Origin: Candidatus Auribacter fodinae
GTDB lineage: Bacteria > Auribacterota > Auribacteria > Auribacterales > Auribacteraceae
Assembly: GCA_003599815.1 (NCBI GenBank)
Contig: QZJZ01000105.1
Location: 7,174-71,173, forward strand
Reading direction: 5' to 3'
Length of the DNA: 64,000 nucleotides
Shown in pieces: positions 881-59,718 of the stretch. The notes under the pieces are model-generated. The model was not told where the DNA came from and ran no database searches. It saw nothing but the letters and a program-made list of their open reading frames with translations. Position 1 is the first letter of the stretch. Each line of letters starts with the position of its first letter. The position numbers and the translations under genes were made by a program.

Positions 881-924
881 TTGATAATAAAAACCATTTT
901 CAGTTATGAGACAAAAAAATATAT
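881..924 (-). promoter_or_regulatory. Fur-box-containing promoter cassette, copy B (TAAAAACCATTTTCA core)
   Basis: A 44-nt stretch is nearly identical to 2494-2538. It contains a 7-1-7 inverted repeat one mismatch from the perfect palindrome found upstream of fur, and it immediately abuts the DUF5320 RBS. Confidence 0.5.
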
Positions 925-2493: not shown

Positions 2494-2539
2494 TTGATAA
2501 TGAAAACCATTTTCAGTTATGAGACAAAAAAAATATATT
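2494..2539 (-). promoter_or_regulatory. Fur-box-containing promoter cassette, copy A (TGAAAACCATTTTCA core at 2501-2515)
   Basis: A 45-nt near-duplicate of 881-924 lies 15 nt upstream of the methyltransferase ATG and overlaps the -10/RBS region. Its 22-mer is the exact reverse complement of the one at 8877-8898. Confidence 0.55.
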
Positions 2540-2542
2540 CCT

Positions 2543-3019
2543 CTAGCGAGTGTCCCTGCAGTCTTCGCAGAGCCCGTAAAACTGTATCAGATGCGTATTT
2601 ATGGTAAAATTATATTTTTCCGACAATCCTTTCTCGGTTTTTCTGAGCAGTTCGAGTTCGTCGTCGATAAATTCTTTGTAGTCGATAATTTTTTTGCAGG
2701 CAGTGCACACGAGATGGTGATGATGGTTTTCGTCGTCAGTGCCTGAAGCGAGTTCGTATCGTGCTCTGCCGTCGCCGAAATCGAATTTGAATACCATTCC
2801 CATATCGTTGAGGATTTCCAGTGTGCGGTAGATGGTTGTGAGCCCGACAGCGGGGTTATTTTCGTGGACGCTAAGATAGATTTCTTCCGCGCTCATGTGT
2901 TTTTCTTCGGACAGCATGAGAGTGTTGAGCACTGCTTCTCTGGCGGCGGTGATGCGGTATCCGCATCCTCTGAATTTACCTTGCCACCAACCGTGACCCT
3001 GACATTTCCCGTATGGCAT
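2543..3019 (-). CDS. Fur-family metalloregulator (Fur/PerR-like) with Cys/His-rich N-terminal extension
   Basis: The DNA-binding helix (TIYRTLEILNDMGMV), the HHHH metal site and two CxxC pairs (CTAC...CEDC) are all present. The N-terminus MPYGKCQGHGWWQGKFRGC is unusual. The RBS AAGGAG precedes the start. Confidence 0.8.
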   Translation of the reverse strand: MPYGKCQGHGWWQGKFRGCGYRITAAREAVLNTLMLSEEKHMSAEEIYLSVHENNPAVGLTTIYRTLEILNDMGMVFKFDFGDGRARYELASGTDDENHHHHLVCTACKKIIDYKEFIDDELELLRKTEKGLSEKYNFTINTHLIQFYGLCEDCRDTR

Positions 3020-3032
3020 CTCGTCTCCTTAA

Positions 3033-3047
3033 TGAAAATCATTTTCA
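3033..3047. promoter_or_regulatory. Perfect 7-1-7 Fur-box palindrome TGAAAATCATTTTCA (autoregulatory site)
   Basis: The sequence is an exact inverted repeat. It ends 4 nt before the RBS of the Fur-family gene. The Bacillus-type Fur box is TGATAATNATTATCA. Confidence 0.6.
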
Positions 3048-3105
3048 ATAATAATATAAGTTATAGATCGGCATGAGTCAATATTTTTTTACTGGTGAGG
3101 GATTA

Positions 3106-5865
3106 TTATTGAGAATATTCTTTAAGGAAAAGCTGAAATAAACTCTTTTGATCTCTGCTTAGTTTGTCGTATTCTTCTGAATTCTTTGTATAATCCGAAA
3201 TCATATTATAGAGTTCCTTGAGATTATCCGATATCCAGGGTTTTGCAGCAGAGAAAGTTCTATTATTCATATCGTTTTGAAGGCTATCAGAACAAGCGTG
3301 TAAAAATTTATAGCAGTGGTTTATATTCTTTTTGATGTAAGGGATTATTGTATCAAAAATATCGATTTTGTTTTGTTTGAACCAGAAGAGTACTTTCTTG
3401 AAAACTTCCAAATCAGTAAGACTCTCCAAATTGATTAAAGAAGCATTTTGATTCTCCTTAATGGCTTTTACCAACAACTCTTTCAAATCAGGATAAAATT
3501 GTTTTTCGAAAATCACTCGGATAAAAAGTATTTTTGCGAATAGATGCTCCATTTTATTAAAAACATTTTTGATATCCCCATCTTTCTTAAAATTCTCATG
3601 ACAATACAGAGATACCAATAGAGAAACAGCGTTTGTCCCAATAACCTCGTCATTGATATTCTCAGAAAGTAGCGAAATTACAGCTTTGAACATAAAAAAA
3701 AGTATATCGTGATTGATATCTCTATTATCAGAGACAAAACCCCTCAACAAATAGACCAATTTCGCCAACGGAATATCAGAAGTGCATATATTATTGTGCA
3801 CTTCTTTTTCAGTCATTTCAGTTGTTTTTAACCTAGTAAGGAAGGCTTTTATCTTGCTGTAACTGATATTTTCAGGACTCACGTGAAGGGAAAAATATTT
3901 ATCAAAGAAATCATAATGGCAAATTTTGTATTGACTCATCCATTCAACTCGTTTCGCTAGCAAATAACTCATTGCTCGATTATTTGCATATGCCACAACC
4001 GGAAACAAATATTCCAGAATTTTACTTAATCTGTCTTTTTCTATGGATAAAATATCTTTGTTGTGCTCTGCAATATTCTTATGAAAAATATCCTCTTTTC
4101 TTTTATCCGATCGATTACCTTGCGCTCTATTTGCCGCTTCCTCACTAGAGTATATGTACAAATCTCTATTTGACCAGATATCATCATAAACAGCATGAGA
4201 AATAAACCTGATTATTTCCAACAGCAAAAAATCATTCACATTAACTTCATCTTTAATCTGAGGTATATCAAAGGATACGGAGTTCAAATATCTTTTTACA
4301 TCCCGCAATGTATTGAAGTGCAAGATTGGAACATTTGCTTCAAACACTGCATACTCTTCTTCACCTATTTTTTCTGTTTCAAAAAGTAACTTAATACCTT
4401 TCTTCAAGTATTTATTAAGATAATATGCTTCTATTTTGGGCAATCGGTTAGGATGTTGAACAATTTTTCCCAGATAATCTCTATCACCAAGCTCTTTTAT
4501 GACTTTATCGTCGTCCAGCGCGACCAAGAACCTGGTATTGTCAAGTTTTGCATTTAAACGTATAAGTTTAAGTACGCTAAGTAATTCGTCTTTTTGCAAT
4601 CTGTCCAGATCATCAATGATGATTAATATTTTTTTCTCAGTTCGCCTTATATATTCATTAAGTTTACTTCTCAATTCTTCGAGATTTTCTTCACAACTTG
4701 ATTTTGCAAAACATTTGAGGTATTTATTCTCCCCTAAAATAGTATTTACATACTTATTTAATGTTTTGCTGAAATCCCTGAACAGAAAATTATAACACAC
4801 AGCGTTTTCAATCTGCTTATAAAAATTTTTCAATAACACTGTTTCATCTTCAAAATGCCATGGATCAAATTCTACCACCATATACTTAGACGACATTTTT
4901 TGTTTAGCCTGTTCTCTTTTCTCAGGGTCTTCTTCAGTTCCTCGAAATATCGACTTAAGAATCTCCAGAACAGAACTTTTCCCTTCACCCCATGACCCAT
5001 ATAAACCGATGACATGGGAATGGATATCTTTGATTTCGTCTATACGTTTTGCAAGTCCCTTAATGAAATCGATTCGCCCTAATTCATCTTGATCAAGGCG
5101 AGTTATCGGTTCATCGTTATAAATTTGTTTTCTTTCTTCTTCCTCATCTTTTCCAGCGTTTTGAGGAGTATTACTTTTTGGTTTTACAAAGAAAGCTCGT
5201 ATTACGATAATAAAGCCATAAATTACTGCAAAAATCATTATGCTTTTGAAATATAGATCAGATAACGAAAATCTCTGTAGCAAAGCGTTTAAACCCGACT
5301 TCGCAGGCCACAATACCCCTGCGCATATTAAAATTACATATAAAAATATAAATTCTTCAAAAACAAAGAGTGAGTTTTTAAGTTTAAGTGTATTGTGATA
5401 TTTCCTGAAAAAATCTATGAGTATGCTCCAAAAGCAAAACGCCAGAAAAGTCAAGACAACATAGATCAATACGATCAACAGTATATCCTGATACAAGAAA
5501 TCACTTATTTTAAATATTATTGATCTGAAATCGATATGTAGTTTATGTAAAAGATACTGAATTCCCAGAAAAGTTATCACTGCAAGTAACAGCGTATACC
5601 AATGTCGCTTCCAATTCCTCATCTTTCGTAACTTACCCTTATAAAGAATGAAATGAAGCAAAAAGAAAAATAAGGGGATATAGAAAAGACACTGAGGCAA
5701 ATCGACATAAATATCAATTAACACAAGAAAGACGGACAGTAAAAGAGCAACTGGTGTATAGAATGACCTTGAGAGTATTATCGTTACAATTTGTTTGATT
5801 AGCTCTTTCATCTTTTCTGCTGTAATGGTTTTATTGGAGATGCAGATCAGCTTACCCAATGACAT
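3106..5865 (-). CDS. KAP-family P-loop NTPase with N-terminal multi-pass membrane domain (919 aa)
   Basis: The Walker A motif GLYGSWGEGKSS and Walker B motif ILIIIDDLDRL are hallmarks of KAP NTPases. Roughly 250 aa of N-terminal hydrophobic helices precede them. The gene is markedly AT-rich relative to its neighbours. Confidence 0.65.
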   Translation of the reverse strand: MSLGKLICISNKTITAEKMKELIKQIVTIILSRSFYTPVALLLSVFLVLIDIYVDLPQCLFYIPLFFFLLHFILYKGKLRKMRNWKRHWYTLLLAVITFLGIQYLLHKLHIDFRSIIFKISDFLYQDILLIVLIYVVLTFLAFCFWSILIDFFRKYHNTLKLKNSLFVFEEFIFLYVILICAGVLWPAKSGLNALLQRFSLSDLYFKSIMIFAVIYGFIIVIRAFFVKPKSNTPQNAGKDEEEERKQIYNDEPITRLDQDELGRIDFIKGLAKRIDEIKDIHSHVIGLYGSWGEGKSSVLEILKSIFRGTEEDPEKREQAKQKMSSKYMVVEFDPWHFEDETVLLKNFYKQIENAVCYNFLFRDFSKTLNKYVNTILGENKYLKCFAKSSCEENLEELRSKLNEYIRRTEKKILIIIDDLDRLQKDELLSVLKLIRLNAKLDNTRFLVALDDDKVIKELGDRDYLGKIVQHPNRLPKIEAYYLNKYLKKGIKLLFETEKIGEEEYAVFEANVPILHFNTLRDVKRYLNSVSFDIPQIKDEVNVNDFLLLEIIRFISHAVYDDIWSNRDLYIYSSEEAANRAQGNRSDKRKEDIFHKNIAEHNKDILSIEKDRLSKILEYLFPVVAYANNRAMSYLLAKRVEWMSQYKICHYDFFDKYFSLHVSPENISYSKIKAFLTRLKTTEMTEKEVHNNICTSDIPLAKLVYLLRGFVSDNRDINHDILFFMFKAVISLLSENINDEVIGTNAVSLLVSLYCHENFKKDGDIKNVFNKMEHLFAKILFIRVIFEKQFYPDLKELLVKAIKENQNASLINLESLTDLEVFKKVLFWFKQNKIDIFDTIIPYIKKNINHCYKFLHACSDSLQNDMNNRTFSAAKPWISDNLKELYNMISDYTKNSEEYDKLSRDQKSLFQLFLKEYSQ

Positions 5866-5932
5866 ATTACACCATACAGCATTACTGTATCAATCTATAT
5901 TCGAATAATAAAAAGGAATGAAAAATTAAGCC

Positions 5933-6943
5933 TTAACTCCTCATTCTTTTGCGGAGAGCTGTACCGAATAGTCCGGCACACAGCAAAAAGATCGACATCG
6001 GTTCAGGTACCGCAAACTGTGAAGCGTCGGTCAACAGAAACGCGTGGGTCTCACCATCAGGATTGATACCATACCCGATGATCTGACCGAAACTATTGAT
6101 ATCCCAGGCATCCTGTAAATACCATCCAGTTCCATTATCAACAAGGTCATTCAAGTCTTTCATTGTGGAATCTTCATATAGAAAAGCGGTCGAATTGTTT
6201 AACGCATTCCTGGAATACCCAACCAATAAACCATCGTCATTTATACCGCGCACTTCGGATTTAACATCATCGGCAAGAGTACCAATAAAATGAGCGGTTC
6301 CGTCATAATACATTGCAGTATAATCAGTTCCGTTGTTAGTCACTGCTCCGGCCATCACATTACTGTTGTTTATCGCCCTGAACCAAGCGGATGTCCCGCC
6401 AAGCGTACCTATATTGTGCTGAGAACCATCCCAGTAAGCTGCCTGCTCCCAGTTGTATCCTGCCATGACACCGGAATCATTAATTGCCCACGGACGCCCG
6501 TGACTAAAATAAGTTAAGTTTCCGTTATATCGATATGCCTGATCGCTTTCAGTATATCCCGCAATCTGACCCGACGTGTTAATCCCGCGTGTATAACCAT
6601 TTATTCCAGGATCATGATATGTACCGTCATAGTACAAACTTTTGACTGGTGAGGTCATTGAATTAAATATTACTACGCCGGAATTGTTTATACCTGTCGC
6701 TACGGTATCGGAATATCCTAGTCCAGCCCCGATGTTTATCATGGTTGTGCCATTCCATAAAAATGCCTGTCTCTCACCTGAGGAATTAGTGGATTCACCA
6801 ACAACATGCCCGGAATCGTTCATGGCGTAAGCTTTGCTATTCGTGCCTCCAAGAGTGCCGAGGTCGATTATGTGATAGGCGGCAGAGTATGCCGCGCAGG
6901 GAAAAAGAATGGATATTAACAGGAAAAAGATTATTTTGCGCAT
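5933..6943 (-). CDS. HAF-repeat extracellular protein with PEP-CTERM sorting signal
   Basis: It has a signal peptide, repeated GYSxxxxG(x)xHAFLW/AxxYDG-type repeats and a C-terminal VPEP motif followed by a TM helix and RKRMRS. Confidence 0.65.
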   Translation of the reverse strand: MRKIIFFLLISILFPCAAYSAAYHIIDLGTLGGTNSKAYAMNDSGHVVGESTNSSGERQAFLWNGTTMINIGAGLGYSDTVATGINNSGVVIFNSMTSPVKSLYYDGTYHDPGINGYTRGINTSGQIAGYTESDQAYRYNGNLTYFSHGRPWAINDSGVMAGYNWEQAAYWDGSQHNIGTLGGTSAWFRAINNSNVMAGAVTNNGTDYTAMYYDGTAHFIGTLADDVKSEVRGINDDGLLVGYSRNALNNSTAFLYEDSTMKDLNDLVDNGTGWYLQDAWDINSFGQIIGYGINPDGETHAFLLTDASQFAVPEPMSIFLLCAGLFGTALRKRMRS

Positions 6944-7035: not shown

Positions 7036-7066
7036 ACAAAAAAAGCGTGCCGAACCACACGGCACG
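7036..7066 (-). terminator. Rho-independent terminator for the ferritin-like/prx transcript
   Basis: On the minus strand the hairpin cgtgccg/cggcacg is followed by a T-run. The same stem sequence occurs at 9047-9079. Confidence 0.4.
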
Positions 7067-7100: not shown

Positions 7101-7580
7101 TTATGCCATATCAGCGAGCAAAGATTCCAGATCTTCCTCATGCTTGACTTCATCCTCAAGGATTTCCAACACCAGATGGTAGGTGATAGGATCTTTATCC
7201 TTCACGAAATCAAGGAGTTTGCTGTATGTGGCGATGGCGCATTGCTCGCCTTTGATATTTTGTTTGAGCAATGTTTTGGTGCATGGATCAGTCGGAGCGT
7301 CGTATCCGCACCCTGACTCTTTCAACAACGCTTCCGGTGTCAGAAGCGGAGTTCCGCCTAATGTAATCATGCGTTCAACAAGCTTCTGCGCATGTTCCAG
7401 TTCTTCATTAGCGTGCTCTTCCAGCTCTCCGGCGACAATTCCTCTCATCCTGCCGGAAGCGACTTTCGCGCCGACCCAATACTGGTAATACGCGAGCCAC
7501 TCGTCCGCGTACGCTTTGTTCAGCATATCCAGCAGTTTCGCAACATCTACTCCGACAATAGCCTTACCTTTTGTGCCCAT
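7101..7580 (-). CDS. ferritin-like diiron protein (Dps-like/bacterioferritin-type)
   Basis: The four-helix-bundle ferroxidase ligands follow an ExxH pattern (ELEEHANEELEHAQK; EDEVKHEED). The protein is 159 aa. Confidence 0.55.
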   Translation of the reverse strand: MGTKGKAIVGVDVAKLLDMLNKAYADEWLAYYQYWVGAKVASGRMRGIVAGELEEHANEELEHAQKLVERMITLGGTPLLTPEALLKESGCGYDAPTDPCTKTLLKQNIKGEQCAIATYSKLLDFVKDKDPITYHLVLEILEDEVKHEEDLESLLADMA

Positions 7581-7619: not shown

Positions 7620-8282
7620 TTATTTCAATTTAAGCGGCTTAAAACAAATAAACCAGTCAAGGCACTTTATGCCTTCTTTCTGAGCGCCTTCAACTCGCGC
7701 TTTCGCGGTACCGCAACTACCCGGAGGCGGTACAATAACGTCATCGCCGGGCTGCCAGTCCGCCGGAGTGGCGACGTTATACGTATCCACTGTCTGCATG
7801 GAAATAAGTATCCGCTTAATTTCCTGAAAATTGCGTCCTGTTGACAACGGATAATACATAAGCGCCCTCACTTTAGCCTTAGGGTCAATAAAAAACACTG
7901 CTCTTACCGCGCTCACGTCACTTTCAGAAGGCTGAATCATCCCGAACTTTTTCGCCACATCCATTTTAAGGTCGGCAATCACGGGAAAGTTCACTTCAAT
8001 ATTCTTTAATCCTTTGTACTCGATCTTTTCCTTGATTGTCCGCAACCACGCGATATGGCTGTAATGGCTGTCTATGGAAAGCCCGATAAGTTTGCAATTT
8101 AATGCGTCAAATTCTTTTTCCATAGACGCGAACGTCATAAATTCCGTCGTGCAGACAGGCGTAAAATCAGCCGGATGACTGAACAGTATAACCCATTTCC
8201 CCTTATAATCTTCCGGGAACTTTATTTTCCCCTGGGTTGTATCTGCTTCAAATGACGGGGCAACATCGCCGATGACAGGCAT
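7620..8282 (-). CDS. peroxiredoxin, 1-Cys Prx6 type
   Basis: The match to MPVIGDVAPSF...WVILFSHPADFTPVCTTE is canonical. The start was trimmed to the MPVIGD methionine (the ORF track extends to 8339). Confidence 0.8.
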   Translation of the reverse strand: MPVIGDVAPSFEADTTQGKIKFPEDYKGKWVILFSHPADFTPVCTTEFMTFASMEKEFDALNCKLIGLSIDSHYSHIAWLRTIKEKIEYKGLKNIEVNFPVIADLKMDVAKKFGMIQPSESDVSAVRAVFFIDPKAKVRALMYYPLSTGRNFQEIKRILISMQTVDTYNVATPADWQPGDDVIVPPPGSCGTAKARVEGAQKEGIKCLDWFICFKPLKLK

Positions 8283-8455
8283 ATAGGTTTTTTCACAGTT
8301 ATTCTGTTCCACTTTTAATCCCCCCTTCGCATCAACCATTTTTCAACGTTGTCGTTTGACAGTAAAAATCGACCTTATTATTTCAACGACGTCCCCGCAT
8401 CAGAAACGATTATATGTGTCTACTGCGGAGAGTCATGCCTCCTTGCGAAAAATCA

Positions 8456-8773
8456 TCAGACCGCCGTTTCGTACCACTTGTCAAGCCACGCCGCGTTTTC
8501 ATCAAAAGGATTTGTCTGCATGGCGAATAAAAAGAAATACGGATAATGCTCTCTTGTATAATACATATAACTCAGCCACTGGTGAGTCAGATGGTTATAC
8601 GCGCGTTCAAGATCTTTTTTGGTATGGGATTTATCTTCCTGAGAAAGATTAACCAGATTCCGCGCGGCTAATTCTTCAGTCATATGAAATATGGACATCA
8701 GAGTTTCCGTAAATGTCTGATGTTCAAGCAAATTCTGGTTTTGGAGCAAATTAACCAAAAAACCTCGCCGCAA
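8456..8773 (-). CDS. hypothetical protein (TTG start; alternative ATG at 8698)
   Basis: There is an open frame only. The RBS is weak and no recognisable domain is present. Confidence 0.25.
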   Translation of the reverse strand: MRRGFLVNLLQNQNLLEHQTFTETLMSIFHMTEELAARNLVNLSQEDKSHTKKDLERAYNHLTHQWLSYMYYTREHYPYFFLFAMQTNPFDENAAWLDKWYETAV

Positions 8774-8876: not shown

Positions 8877-8898
8877 TGAAAATGGTTTTCATTATCAA
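8877..8898. promoter_or_regulatory. Orphan Fur box (TGAAAATGGTTTTCATTATCAA), exact inverse of the 2494-2515 22-mer
   Basis: It lies in a 333-bp AT-rich interval between predicted genes, 104 bp from the nearest (weak) start codon. Confidence 0.45.
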
Positions 8899-9046
8899 TT
8901 TTATCTTTAGTGGGAGATTTGTCAATAATCATTTTTGGAGAATTATTCCAGGAGTGAACGCTGTATTTGAGAAGACTTCCGGTTCCGTTTTTCACAACTC
9001 AAACACATCGCAATAAAGATAAATATTTAACATATTGATACTAATG

Positions 9047-49943: not shown

Positions 49944-50200
49944 TTAACATCTCCTATGTTAAGTACCTTAGTTACATGATATTCTAAACTTTACCCTTCG
50001 ATAACTCTTTCGCTGTCCGGTTTAATCAGTGACAGCAAAAAATAAATATAGCATTATTATCTTTACAAAACAACTTTTAAGCGAATAAAATCATTTTCAT
50101 CAGACATTTATAGACATCATCTTATACAAGAGCCGATTCCGCAACATTTTTTACTGCTGAAATGTTCTCATGAATTTTTATTTTCAAAAAGGAGACATGA

Positions 50201-57084: not shown

Positions 57085-59718
57085 TTACAGATAAACAGCT
57101 ACCTTCACGATTTTTGCTGTTGTGCCGGAGTTGACAAAAACATGGTCATTGTACGGAATCGTAATGCCGTCGTGTCCTGCGGTCACGAATTTTCCGTCCA
57201 CAGATACCTTGCTCGCGCCTTTTAGAGCGTCATCCCTGTACACTTCAAGTTCAATAACGATATTTTTATGCTCCGCGCGATGCGACACTTTACGCGCTGA
57301 AAGGATTCGTTCACCGTTTTGAACAGCCTCACGCCATACCGAAGGCACGCGCGGATCAATCTTCATGCCCGAATGATGCGGAACAATACCGATCATCTCA
57401 GCCATAAACCTCATCCGCCACGAATGCGACCCCGTAAACGGGTAATACGGTTCCTTGCCGTAATCAGCGTTGTTCGGCACAGCAGTGTAGTTGCTGTGGT
57501 ATATCGGCGGATTGGTGGATATGTCAGGGAGACGGTTGTCATCAGATATACGGCGGAACGATTCATATGCCTGATCGACATAGCCTGCCTTCAGCAACGC
57601 CGCCGCCCAGAAAAGCACACCGTGCTGGTAAACAGCGCCGTTCTCGAAATGCCCCTGCGCCTGATCGGCAATACGCCCCACATGAACCGAGCTTTTCTTG
57701 CTGTACGGTTTCAGCAAACGGTGCCCGAAAGGAGTCTGAAGTTCGTCCATGGCGGAAATGACCGGTTCAAACCGCTGTTGCGGAATCACGTCGCTGATAA
57801 ACGCCCATGCGTTTTCGTTCAGGTGCTTCTGCCCTTCGTCATTCACTGACGCACCAACTTTCTGCCCGTCATTGTCATATCCGAAAATATAGTATCCTTC
57901 AGTATCCCAGCCGCTTTTGTTTATCGCCGAGGAAATGTTCTTTATAAGTAAATTCATGTATTCGATAGTCTTGTTATCTTTTTTCAACTGAGCAAGAACC
58001 GCCATCTTTCGGGCGGCATACACGAGAAGCTGTGACAACCAGACACTTTCGCTCCGGTTGCCGCGCAATCCGTCGAGCGCGTCGTTCCAGCCGCCGTATC
58101 CGAGCTTGCAGAGCCCGTGCTCACCGATATTCCCTTCATACGCGCTTCTCACCGCCAGTACGAGATGATCGTAAATCGAGACCGCACCCTTCTCCGATAA
58201 CGTGACATTATCGTTTTCAAGGAACCCGACCTTTTTATCAAGAAGCGCCATGTCGCCGGTTTCCCTGATATACATCTCCATGAGGTCAGGAGCCCAGAGC
58301 TGGCAATCCATGAAATTACGTAAATCATGCAAAGATGAAAACTTACATATCTGACGGGGAATCCTGCCGTCACGGTACTGATACGACAGCATGAACGGCA
58401 CGAATAACCGCACATAGCCCGGCTCAAACATACAGTTTGCCAGCAGATACTGAAACATATCCCGTGTACCCACATCATACGGGCTGTTAAACCGTGAACA
58501 GAGTATACTCTGATATTTACCCCAGATATTGAATGTCCTGTTCATAGGCTCGCAGGGAGTATCGACAAGATAGGTGTTTATGACCGACTGCCACGCGGCG
58601 CGAACGTCTTTGAGCTCTTTTTCTATCTGTTCATCAGTCAAAAATGAGTACACATCGCTTACCTGACGGTTGACATCTTTTGCCGGATTAACAGCGCTGA
58701 CAGCGCAATGCGTGGAAAACGTTTTGCCCGCCCCTAAATCCACTTTATACTGAAACGCGCCGATCATTCCTTTGAGCGGTTGTTTCGCTTCCGTATTGGA
58801 TAGCGATTCGTCAAACACGGACGGCGGATACATGATCGACGCCCCGAACTTGTAGTAGGTATCCGCGCAGGAATCGAACGAATCCGGTTTGCGCGCGGAT
58901 ACAAAGGCTCCCCATCGGGGAAACGAATTTTTGATATCAAGATTTTTGGCGATGATGGCGTTATGTGTGCCGTCAAACGTGACTTCACTGACAGCCATGC
59001 CCACAAAATAGTGGCTCGGATGGCTGTCCAGCCCGAAATTTATTTCAGGATACACCTGAACCGACCTTTTTTTGTCTGTGGTATTGGTGATGGAAATCGT
59101 CCATATCTCGCAAGGCAGAGACAACGGCACGAATATCCTTAACGACATTTTCAGCCCGTCTCGCTCAGTGAGGTACTCAATAAAACCCGGCCCCTGCCTG
59201 CACGAGTATCCGTCGTACGCTTCAGCCTCACATTTTCCTGCGGCGTCATACTGATTCGGCTGGGGAATAAGTGAAAATACCGATCCGGAATCTGTTTTTA
59301 CCCAGACAGTACGGGCATTGTGATACACCTGCGATACATGCATATAATTTTCATTGCCGCTGAGTTTGGTCACAGGCCCGAACAGGACTGAATCAAGCGA
59401 CATAACCCCTGCCCCGTCATGGGCGGCAATGGATAACGCCACATCACGAATGGTATGCTTGAGGTTAAGCATATAATGATACCACCCTTTCGGGGTGTGC
59501 AGTTTATCTATGACAAGCGTGCTGTTAGTAAGGTATTCGCCGTCAAAACTGTCCTGAAAATGAGAATACCTGCTCTTGAGCTGTTTAACCTGCTCCGCAG
59601 TGAGCTGTTCCATCTGCTGTTCGCCTGACGCAAGCCCGGCACGTACCGCGTCTGTCATTTTTTTATAAGCCGAAGCCTGTTCCGGGGCTTCAAGAAATTT
59701 TTTCCGATCGTTTTTCAT
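57085..59718 (-). CDS. large (alpha/alpha)6-barrel glycoside phosphorylase/hydrolase, GH94-like
   Basis: It is 877 aa. A GGWND segment resembles the catalytic-Asp region of GH94 cellobiose/chitobiose phosphorylases. This is a tentative family call. Confidence 0.4.
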   Translation of the reverse strand: MKNDRKKFLEAPEQASAYKKMTDAVRAGLASGEQQMEQLTAEQVKQLKSRYSHFQDSFDGEYLTNSTLVIDKLHTPKGWYHYMLNLKHTIRDVALSIAAHDGAGVMSLDSVLFGPVTKLSGNENYMHVSQVYHNARTVWVKTDSGSVFSLIPQPNQYDAAGKCEAEAYDGYSCRQGPGFIEYLTERDGLKMSLRIFVPLSLPCEIWTISITNTTDKKRSVQVYPEINFGLDSHPSHYFVGMAVSEVTFDGTHNAIIAKNLDIKNSFPRWGAFVSARKPDSFDSCADTYYKFGASIMYPPSVFDESLSNTEAKQPLKGMIGAFQYKVDLGAGKTFSTHCAVSAVNPAKDVNRQVSDVYSFLTDEQIEKELKDVRAAWQSVINTYLVDTPCEPMNRTFNIWGKYQSILCSRFNSPYDVGTRDMFQYLLANCMFEPGYVRLFVPFMLSYQYRDGRIPRQICKFSSLHDLRNFMDCQLWAPDLMEMYIRETGDMALLDKKVGFLENDNVTLSEKGAVSIYDHLVLAVRSAYEGNIGEHGLCKLGYGGWNDALDGLRGNRSESVWLSQLLVYAARKMAVLAQLKKDNKTIEYMNLLIKNISSAINKSGWDTEGYYIFGYDNDGQKVGASVNDEGQKHLNENAWAFISDVIPQQRFEPVISAMDELQTPFGHRLLKPYSKKSSVHVGRIADQAQGHFENGAVYQHGVLFWAAALLKAGYVDQAYESFRRISDDNRLPDISTNPPIYHSNYTAVPNNADYGKEPYYPFTGSHSWRMRFMAEMIGIVPHHSGMKIDPRVPSVWREAVQNGERILSARKVSHRAEHKNIVIELEVYRDDALKGASKVSVDGKFVTAGHDGITIPYNDHVFVNSGTTAKIVKVAVYL

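Follow-up and report, generated by a model that had tools for sequence, protein, structure and literature searches.

Fur-family repressors, their 7-1-7 boxes, and their autoregulation are textbook material, and autoregulation is also known for perR. In Escherichia coli, sufABCDSE is off under Fe-Fur (with OxyR and IscR) and is induced by iron shortage or oxidative stress. In Helicobacter pylori, apo-Fur acts on pfr, which sets a precedent for an apo-repressor. The present analysis deals with a DNA stretch of 64,000 nucleotides (nt) from Candidatus Auribacter fodinae (GenBank assembly GCA_003599815.1, contig QZJZ01000105.1, positions 7,174 to 71,173 of the forward strand), referred to below as the window. 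This stretch encodes a Fur-family regulator in the neighbourhood of genes for iron-sulfur (Fe-S) handling and carries four short palindromes, which are considered here as candidate operators of that regulator.

Among the described systems, the E. coli suf control is the closest analogy in logic to the repression proposed here, and PerR is the closest in regulon content. The Suf proteins are unrelated to the orange-protein (ORP), Mrp, and NifX-like proteins of the window, and E. coli Fur is global, whereas the window regulator looks local and dedicated. The PerR regulons of Bacillus subtilis, Clostridium acetobutylicum, and Desulfovibrio share with this locus the five N/O ligands with Asp, the peroxidase and Dps/ferritin members, and the anaerobic hosts. 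They differ from it in that the window regulator has Arg for Asn in the recognition helix, lacks a TTATAATNATTATAA box, keeps the second metal site intact, and scores lower with PerR than with Fur profiles. With Bacillus Fur the likeness includes the best structure and model match, a nearly identical recognition helix with its Arg, and an operator at the regulator's own promoter. The sub-cutoff score, Asp113 in place of Glu108, a Gly/Trp-rich N-terminal tail, and conserved targets which are Fe-S handling genes instead of iron uptake genes set the window-type protein apart. The window operator agrees with the B. subtilis Fur box TGATAATNATTATCA at 13 of 15 positions and shares its 7-1-7 form, TG...CA ends, and promoter overlap; A replaces T at position 4, and position 12 is changed symmetrically. 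The original prediction had recognized this likeness to the Fur/PerR box, including the A at position 4, and the alignment bears it out.

The ORP cluster is anaerobe-specific, and its gene content has been described (PMC6345978). In Desulfovibrio it forms two divergent operons, which are activated by sigma-54, the enhancer-binding protein DVU2106, and IHF (PMC3897727). The D. vulgaris cluster DVU2103-DVU2109 resembles the window genes in its two MinD-like ATPases with ferredoxin inserts (Orp3/4), its single-domain PF02579 protein (Orp8), and its Mrp/NBP35 carrier (Orp9/MrpORP). Judged by their domains, the putatively regulated genes from DUF5320 through the MinD-like ATPases, together with mrp, make up the gene set of an ORP cluster. 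Unlike the Desulfovibrio cluster, that of the window lies downstream of a Fur-family repressor gene and bears Fur-type candidate operators; its Mrp has no fused Di-Nase, and its unit contains DUF5320 and methyltransferase genes. No enhancer-binding protein is present among the gene calls of the locus.

Another related system is IssA of Pyrococcus furiosus, a thioferrate store which consists of a PF02579/IPR003731 domain and a thioferrate-binding tail (15 Gly, 7 cationic, 14 aromatic, and 11 Pro residues and 1 Cys; isoelectric point (pI) 10.7) and which is made only at abundant iron and sulfide (PMC5524996). The window encodes the same PF02579 domain, and residues 1-62 of its DUF5320 protein (19 Gly, 8 Arg/Lys, 8 aromatic, 6 Pro, 1 Cys; pI 11.2) are chemically close to the IssA tail. 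Two separate proteins of the window carry the domain and the tail-like region, and the DUF5320 protein adds a C-terminal segment that looks like a coiled coil, as judged by eye. A fusion was seen in one relative only (locus L069), where the open reading frame (ORF) from about position 1256 joins a NifX-like PF02579 domain to a DUF5320-type C-terminus through a Gly/Arg-rich linker, an IssA-like architecture in one chain. This is a weak hint that the DUF5320 and NifX-like proteins may form a split IssA-like unit. In the searchable literature, no Fur-type regulator of an ORP cluster, no description of this Fur subfamily, and no function for DUF5320 were found.

Candidate operators and their conservation

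The four palindromes (Table 1) are likely to be operators of the Fur-family protein encoded at 2543-3019, which would repress its four units. On the best-supported reading, the protein would be a dedicated, autoregulated Fur-family repressor. The original prediction reported a perfect inverted repeat at 3033-3047 ahead of fur and a one-mismatch copy at 2501-2515, and both are present. A third copy, given as 887-902 with one mismatch, actually spans 888-902; it departs from the perfect palindrome at two positions and from operator 2 at one. Operator 4 and a direct repeat of about 60 nt which holds operators 1 and 2 had been missed.

The palindrome is rare in the window. At two or fewer mismatches there are six matches in the 64 kb as compared with 0.82 expected, and none of 100 shuffled sequences reaches six. 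A weight matrix of 27 nt, built from 98 cross-species sites, finds four real sites in the same 64 kb; the next best score (10.7) comes from a real site matched out of register, and the maximum over 50 shuffles is 15.5. All four sites lie within 9 kb of the regulator gene, and three strains of the species have kept them all, down to the degenerate base of operator 1. Since the motif is rare and clustered, it is not a general promoter element, an objection which the original prediction had itself named. Two further two-mismatch matches were rejected as noise: one (50085-50099) is absent from the matrix top 25, and the other (59339-59353) has a matrix score of -1.4, under the shuffle maximum.

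The box consensus is a 7-1-7 palindrome, TG(A/G)AAA(T/C)N(A/G)TTT(T/C)CA, plus TAA/TTA flanks, in which T1G2/C14A15 is invariant in 98/98 sites. A TGATAA hexamer (2495-2500) adjoins operator 2, and TTATCA adjoins operator 4. On the minus strand, which is the gene strand, the fur operator is followed by TT-AAGGAG and then by the ATG at 3019. The gap between operator and ribosome-binding site (RBS) is 2 nt at fur and about 10-12 nt at operators 1 and 2, so that the contact with the RBS which had been described for all three sites is loose at the latter two.

The sites begin at about +1, a geometry which fits the repression proposed earlier. The fur operator starts 5 nt 3' of the -10 box of a sigma-70-like promoter, and the core of operator 4 starts 6 nt downstream of the best sigma-70-like promoter in the first 10 kb, the one at 8898-8925. 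A dimer bound at either site would cover the transcription start. The leader behind operator 4 measures about 100-190 nt, varying with the start codon chosen.

A genome scan yielded 591 loci encoding relatives of the regulator, of which the best 80 (985 kb) were analysed. Their hosts belong to Omnitrophota, Atribacterota, Planctomycetota, Elusimicrobiota, Spirochaetota, Thermodesulfovibrionales, Syntrophaceae, Calditrichota, WOR-3, TA06, Lentisphaerae, and Clostridia. With the window-derived pattern alone, 128 matches are found, as compared with 18.3 +/- 5.8 expected. A match lies at -125..-10 of the regulator ATG in 54/77 loci and at +465..+565, directly past the regulator stop codon, in 44/80, and 98-99 of the 128 matches fall in these two narrow windows adjoining the regulator gene. 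By matrix, 70 sites are upstream (about 30 nt before the ATG), 54 are downstream, and 8 are elsewhere; three of the last group precede relocated DUF5320 genes, and two precede a gene for a CGGC-domain protein. The upstream consensus reads TT..-17-tAtAtT-gaTAA-TGgAAAtCATTTTCA-aTAAGGAG-ATG. The downstream consensus reads stop-tAtaTTTTTTT-N9-TTAA-operator-TTAACAA..AGGAGGTG-ATG CCA GGT, and this start encodes MPG(F/G)DGTGP, which is the DUF5320 N-terminus. In the window, operator 3 has the upstream position and operator 2 the downstream one. Some loci carry a canonical TGATAATGATTATCA box (L058).

The genes next to the sites are conserved as well. In more than 10 phyla the regulator gene is syntenic with genes for DUF5320, NifX-like, MinD/Mrp, and methyltransferase proteins, the usual operon past the regulator being DUF5320, two NifX-like proteins, one to three MinD/Mrp ATPases, and a methyltransferase. 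A DUF5320-type gene directly follows the second operator in 43/54 loci, and a methyltransferase homologue is part of the operon in 28 of the 54 loci having at least 4 kb of downstream sequence. Peroxiredoxin, DPS-like, EncFtn-like ferritin, IscU-like scaffold, radical S-adenosylmethionine (SAM), and metallo-beta-lactamase-fold genes recur as accessory members. A tblastn search of the genome loci with the DUF5320 protein gave no match; these genes were recovered by ORF calling together with motif and profile searches. Site counts, synteny, and promoter geometry thus support the earlier proposal that Fur/PerR-type operators would control the regulator, methyltransferase-Mrp, and DUF5320/NifX-like genes.

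An unbiased metagenome scan with the perfect 21-mer returned 120 loci. The window-type regulator subfamily, or its DUF5320/NifX genes, adjoins the palindrome in 41 of them, and other Fur paralogues are near in 8. Five sites precede TroA/ZnuA-like metal-binding lipoproteins (L086, L098, L101, L116, L123), three of these five having a distant Fur paralogue at a distance of 2.7 kb, and three precede feoA, feoB, or flavodoxin in other host organisms (L144, L197, L200). Sixteen loci derive from one human-gut organism, whose 21-mer is probably the Fur box of an unrelated bacterium, and the 47 without a metal-related neighbour are of the order estimated for chance. From these contexts, therefore, the palindrome can be taken as a Fur-family operator type, with this cluster as its commonest context. 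In the gut loci (among them L099, L100, L118, and L126-L129), the 21-mer is found 140 nt upstream of a gene for a surface protein of about 1126 residues (MANQRLMKKVAP...).

It is very improbable that the palindromes are sites of another factor, an AT-rich promoter element, or a meaningless repeated intergenic cassette. The duplicated 60-nt cassette around operators 1 and 2, the 47 metagenomic matches mentioned above, and the unexplained conserved T-run beside the downstream sites would fit such a view. However, the site has a fixed position at the regulator gene in about 70/80 loci and more than 10 phyla while the flanking sequence is unconserved, and no other regulator gene is conserved in the loci. 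The motif is moreover a close Fur-box variant with only four sites in the 64 kb. A conserved RNA hairpin was not found, and Rfam, searched with the whole window, had no matching family, so that a riboswitch or leader RNA is unsupported.

The regulator and its possible signal

The FUR domain of the regulator covers residues 20-148 and scores 107.8 bits against a cutoff of 23.1. The best curated model is the NCBIfam Bacillus-type Fur NF051892 (137.1 bits, cutoff 220), followed among the Fur equivalogs by NF006999 (86.8, cutoff 146) and NF051891 (66.2, cutoff 200); the PerR models give 83.3 (cutoff 180), 63.8 (200), 35.7 (200), and 20.2 bits (250). The best solved structure is a Bacillus-like Fur (PDB 9ire_A, 114 bits), and B. 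subtilis PerR (BsPerR) reaches 63.7 bits. The protein belongs to a distinct Fur subfamily; 79 close relatives have about 157 residues each and the N-terminal segment in common. As compared with Bacillus Fur, an insertion of 6 residues forms a long helix at 118-136.

The proposed ligands of the regulatory metal site, H41, E89, H100, H102, and D113, align with H37, D85, H91, H93, and D104 of BsPerR, whose sequence was confirmed against 2fe3 for this mapping. The Fur-type second-site residues H99, H101, E121, and H143, which we take to correspond to H86, D88, E107, and H124 of Pseudomonas aeruginosa Fur, are invariant in the 79 sequences; H99 and H101 are absent from BsPerR. The structural-zinc cysteines C105, C108, C151, and C154, two CxxC pairs, are likewise invariant. 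The recognition helix reads TTIYRTLE, as compared with ATVYRTLE in Bacillus Fur. Its Arg65 is invariant and aligns with Arg61 of BsFur and Asn61 of BsPerR; the Arg at this position reportedly has a functional role. Arg65 accords with the TG...CA ends, which are invariant in the operator.

The N-terminal segment CQGHGWWQGKFRGC had been described as an unusual Cys/His-rich extension. The segment exists, and only W11, W12, G18, C19, G20, Y21, and R22 are conserved in it. The Cys/His character does not hold, since C6 and H9 of the tail lack conservation, several members have another residue in place of C19, and ahead of the conserved Tyr-Arg-x-Thr the regulator exceeds Bacillus Fur by only about 4 residues. 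In the AlphaFold2 model (mean predicted local distance difference test score 79), residues 1-8 are disordered and 12-19 form the ordinary first Fur helix, and residues 1-10 can be described as a flexible tail. A Cys/His metal knuckle was rejected because of the unconserved C6 and H9, the replacements of C19, and the modelled disordered tail with its ordinary helix 1.

Two more Fur-like subgroups of 148-154 residues (L104, L108, L136, L186; L133, L149, L150, L154), 45-50% identical to the window protein, were observed. Their N-termini are MPGPHKWRHRF...RWT.PRE or MPRRHCARHGLREQVGRWTEPRD. In both, the same perfect palindrome lies about 18 nt before the ATG, and NifX-like and Mrp genes lie downstream.

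In the proposed mechanism, the regulator dimer would carry a divalent metal, most likely Fe2+, at H41/E89/H100/H102/D113, and the metal-loaded dimer would bind each 7-1-7 site together with the TAA/TTA flanks. Repressor bound at the promoters of fur and of the peroxiredoxin operon would cover +1 to about +20 and exclude RNA polymerase. The units controlled would be (i) the regulator's own gene, (ii) methyltransferase-mrp, (iii) DUF5320, two NifX-like genes, and two MinD-like Fe-S ATPases, which would serve ORP-type Fe-S handling, and (iv) the small ORF, peroxiredoxin, and DPS-like ferritin. Loss of the metal, as iron or Fe-S clusters run short, or its oxidation would release the repressor from the DNA. 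Derepression would then supply the cell with proteins that carry and store Fe-S and, at the same time, with proteins that detoxify peroxide and iron. The sequence comparison shows the sites, their non-random occurrence and fixed geometry, and the conservation of regulator, site, and gene set across phyla; from this we infer binding and repression, and the two internal sites may have promoters of their own.

Iron or Fe-S shortage is tentatively preferred as the trigger, at slightly less than an even chance. It is suggested by the Fur similarity, the intact second metal site, Arg65, the Fur-type box, and the identical boxes before feoB and flavodoxin elsewhere. Peroxide, which is suggested by Asp113 and by the peroxidase and ferritin-type members of the regulon, is rather unlikely as the trigger, and another signal is improbable. 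The identity of the effector is a guess.

Several observations weigh against repression by an iron-loaded Fur. The regulator scores under the curated cutoffs of all Fur and PerR equivalog models. It has Asp113 where iron-Fur carries Glu and PerR carries Asp. Operator 1 is altered at G2/C14, positions without variation in the 98 cross-species sites. For operators 1 and 2, the promoter scan and the cross-species consensus gave no convincing -35/-10 pair, and these sites may act on read-through transcripts only. No iron-uptake gene was found beside a site, either in the window, where most genes are unannotated, or within 10 kb in the 80 loci. Repressing ferritin-like storage under plentiful iron is contrary to the usual iron-storage logic, and all the organisms concerned are uncultured, being represented by metagenome-assembled genomes.

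Asp113 speaks for a PerR-like reading, in which Fe2+-catalysed oxidation of His41 or His100 by H2O2 would release the regulator from its operators. The targets would then serve a strict anaerobe against oxygen and peroxide damage, with peroxidase, DPS-like ferritin, and a renewed supply of Fe-S clusters. This Asp is more than 90% conserved in the 79 subfamily members and aligns with Asp104 of BsPerR and Glu108 of BsFur; PerR proteins have Asp and Fur proteins have Glu at this position (PMC4866751). The peroxiredoxin/DPS-like operon of the window regulon, the peroxiredoxin, DPS-like, or EncFtn-like genes in operons elsewhere, and the operator at the regulator's own promoter agree with this reading as well. 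The profiles, however, give 83 bits for PerR and 137 for Fur, and the structures 64 bits for BsPerR and 114 for Fur. Arg65 stands at the position of BsPerR Asn61, Glu89 replaces the PerR Asp85, and BsPerR lacks H99 and H101, two Fur-type second-site residues that never vary in the subfamily. The box has Fur-type TG...CA ends and not those of PerR-type TTATAAT...ATTATAA; the two types of box are said to differ in their ends. On balance, the PerR-like reading is unlikely but deserves some weight. The regulator would mix Fur-type DNA reading with a PerR-type Asp and thus appears to be a natural hybrid.

A different kind of sensing has also to be considered. The regulator could respond to the Fe-S/thioferrate pool or to the state of the ORP complex through its tail, or it could be an apo-repressor which is released by plentiful iron and sulfide, so that storage genes would be on when supply is ample, as with H. 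pylori apo-Fur on pfr and with Pyrococcus IssA. Ferritin-like genes are usually wanted at abundant iron, and an apo-repressor or Fe-S-sensing model therefore keeps a place. The conserved targets are Fe-S carrier and storage-type proteins and not uptake genes, and the disordered region of DUF5320 is like the IssA tail in composition (PMC5524996). Subfamily members starting with MPRGDGTGP match positions 1-21 of the DUF5320 profile (E = 0.03-0.3), and with a local N-terminal profile run against 9,241 locus ORFs, the Fur-like proteins are the best after genuine DUF5320 (E about 0.1). The similarity is weak, short, and sub-threshold, and the window regulator itself has no DUF5320 profile match. 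In addition, Cys6 and His9 of the tail are unconserved, Cys19 can be replaced, the modelled tail is disordered and leads into an ordinary Fur helix 1, and the canonical Fur metal ligands are all intact, so that an extra sensor is unneeded. Sensing of this kind is improbable. The tag MPRGDG(T/A/Q)GP also begins other small Gly/Arg-rich proteins in some loci (L042, L054, L065, L071) and behaves like a portable module; the tagged protein of L054 ends in several CxxC pairs and resembles a zinc ribbon, an assignment made without a Pfam scan.

In a more specific form of the idea, the regulator would be a feedback sensor of ORP/IssA-like Fe-S machinery, and its DUF5320-like tail MPRG-D/x-G/C-x-G-P/Q-x-WW would engage a shared partner, which may be the NifX-like or MinD-like ATPase proteins or anionic Fe-S/thioferrate species. 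Operator occupancy would in that case reflect the filling or the workload of the Fe-S store. This is a still less probable proposal. If true, it would represent a new sensory mode for the Fur family and the first regulatory handle on the ORP complex and DUF5320.

Predicted target genes and control modules

The features on which the metal-loaded repressor would act, and the genes behind them, are listed in Table 1. In the first 9 kb of the window every gene is on the minus strand. The peroxiredoxin exceeds the cutoff of its best model, whereas the DPS-like protein reaches 77-79 bits with archaeal-type DPS models, under their cutoffs. An MJ1433_C-type domain (PF27232) is recorded for the small ORF on source contigs, and Pfam scans of the window gave no match for it. 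Mrp matches positions 1-250 of the 365 of the MrpORP model NF041136 with 349.9 bits and does not reach the cutoff of 450; the Di-Nase part of MrpORP is encoded separately here. The DUF5320 operon continues past the window edge on the source contig (L081, 12898-15058), where the second NifX-like gene is completed and genes for two MinD-like ATPases follow.

Table 1. Predicted control elements and genes of the locus (window positions unless L081 is given)
Feature	Position	Strand	Description
Candidate operator 1 (DUF5320 operon)	888-902		TAAAAACCATTTTCA, two mismatches; matrix score 21.6
Candidate operator 2 (methyltransferase-mrp)	2501-2515		TGAAAACCATTTTCA, one mismatch; matrix score 28.9
Candidate operator 3 (fur)	3033-3047		perfect 7-1-7 palindrome TGAAAATCATTTTCA, flanks TTAA and ATAA; matrix score 37.4
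Candidate operator 4 (peroxiredoxin operon)	8877-8891		TGAAAATGGTTTTCA; matrix score 33.3
fur promoter, sigma-70-like	3053-3081	minus	-35 TTGACT 3081-3076, 17-nt spacer, -10 TATATT 3058-3053; 10/12 matches
Peroxiredoxin-operon promoter, sigma-70-like	8898-8925	minus	TTGACA-16-TAAAAT; 11/12 matches
Intergenic module, copy A	872-931	minus	mrp stop codon, T-run, operator, RBS
Intergenic module, copy B	2485-2545	minus	fur stop codon, ATATATTTTTTTT, GTCTCATAAC, operator, TTATCAAT, RBS
Second NifX-like gene, start	1-123	minus	read directly from sequence
NifX-like/ORP-like single-domain protein	132-497	minus	121 residues; PF02579 54 bits
DUF5320 protein	558-863	minus	101 residues; PF17253 73.3 bits; N-terminus MPGFDGTGP
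Mrp/NBP35 Fe-S carrier ATPase	929-1765	minus	278 residues, P-loop domain only; PF10609 313.7 bits
Class I SAM-dependent methyltransferase	1814-2479	minus	221 residues; PF08241, PF13649
Fur-family regulator	2543-3019	minus	158 residues; PF01475 107.8 bits
Terminator-like hairpin and T-run	7046-7066	minus	closes peroxiredoxin/DPS-like operon
DPS-like ferritin-superfamily protein	7101-7580	minus	PF00210 95.8 bits
1-Cys-type peroxiredoxin	7620-8339	minus	PF00578, PF10417; NF009668 332 bits, cutoff 211
Small ORF, first gene after operator 4	8456-8773	minus	105 residues, or 75 from ATG 8683
MinD-like ATPases, Orp3/Orp4-like	L081 13344-14195 and 14192-15058		CbiA + Fer4; 4Fe-4S inserts

The two intergenic modules form the direct repeat of about 60 nt and are 94% identical. 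Both show one order of elements, namely the stop codon of the gene before, ATATATTTTTTT, operator, TTATCAAT, and RBS. A complete control module was duplicated in the Auribacterota genome, which shifted methyltransferase-mrp ahead of DUF5320 and copied the control module too. Within the modules, the sole -10 candidate for operators 1 and 2 is a TATATT where the T-run begins. No GG-N10-GC was seen by eye at these two sites, where no formal sigma-54 promoter scan was made.

The TATATTTTTTT modules at 2520-2540 and 905-925 are T-run stretches upstream of operators 2 and 1. A tAtaTTTTTTT tract of this kind is present about 9 nt upstream of every downstream operator and is conserved across phyla, and no conserved hairpin lies before it. 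Possible roles for the tract are those of a -10 box followed by a T-rich start region, of an enhancer of translation from read-through transcripts, and of an element that bends the DNA. A terminator hairpin between the regulator stop codon and the T-run was rejected, as it is not conserved (50 loci, mean z -0.5, median -0.16). A few Omnitrophota have compensatory stems in this interval (AGCGG/CCGCT and GACGG/CCGTC).

Between the DPS-like gene and fur, the window carries genes for a PEP-CTERM protein and a KAP NTPase. The gene content of this segment (3106-6943) differs between strains: the KAP-family NTPase and the PEP-CTERM protein are found in the window and in L082/L083, and the NCBI assembly (L081, 6273-9832) has instead proteins of 1045 and 69 residues on the opposite strand. 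The segment is the lowest-GC part of the window (33-39%) and looks like an inserted island splitting an ancestral peroxiredoxin-fur-orp supercluster. Between the DUF5320 and NifX-like genes, at 520-547, there is a 10-bp hairpin with 7 G-C pairs and without a T-run in the gene direction, which may be an mRNA processing or stability element setting the ratio of DUF5320 to the downstream proteins.

Accessory genes were observed in individual relatives. An EncFtn-like ferritin of 83 residues (PF22277) is encoded inside the operon as the fourth or fifth gene past the regulator in L001, L002, L004, and L046, and IscU-like NifU_N proteins occur in the operons of three other genomes. In two Thermodesulfovibrionales loci (L012, 94-108; L016, 102-116), an extra operator precedes a gene for a Cys-rich CGGC-domain protein (PF08821) which lies upstream of the regulator gene.

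Meaning for anaerobe Fe-S physiology

Judged from the sequences compared here, the outcome is a solid and widely conserved regulon prediction with a potentially instructive sensor. The operator-regulator pair is short and lends itself to reconstitution, whether in vitro or within a heterologous host. A Fur/PerR hybrid would be useful for studying the peroxide sensitivity of Fur proteins. For annotation, proteins of this subfamily should not carry the generic label of ferric uptake regulators. The ORP cluster, with its DUF5320 and NifX-like companions, is among the most widespread anaerobe-specific gene sets of unclear function, and its regulation has so far been known for Desulfovibrio only, via sigma-54. 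A Fur-type repressor at the ORP cluster in more than 10 mostly uncultured phyla would tie this gene set to iron, Fe-S, and oxidative-stress physiology.

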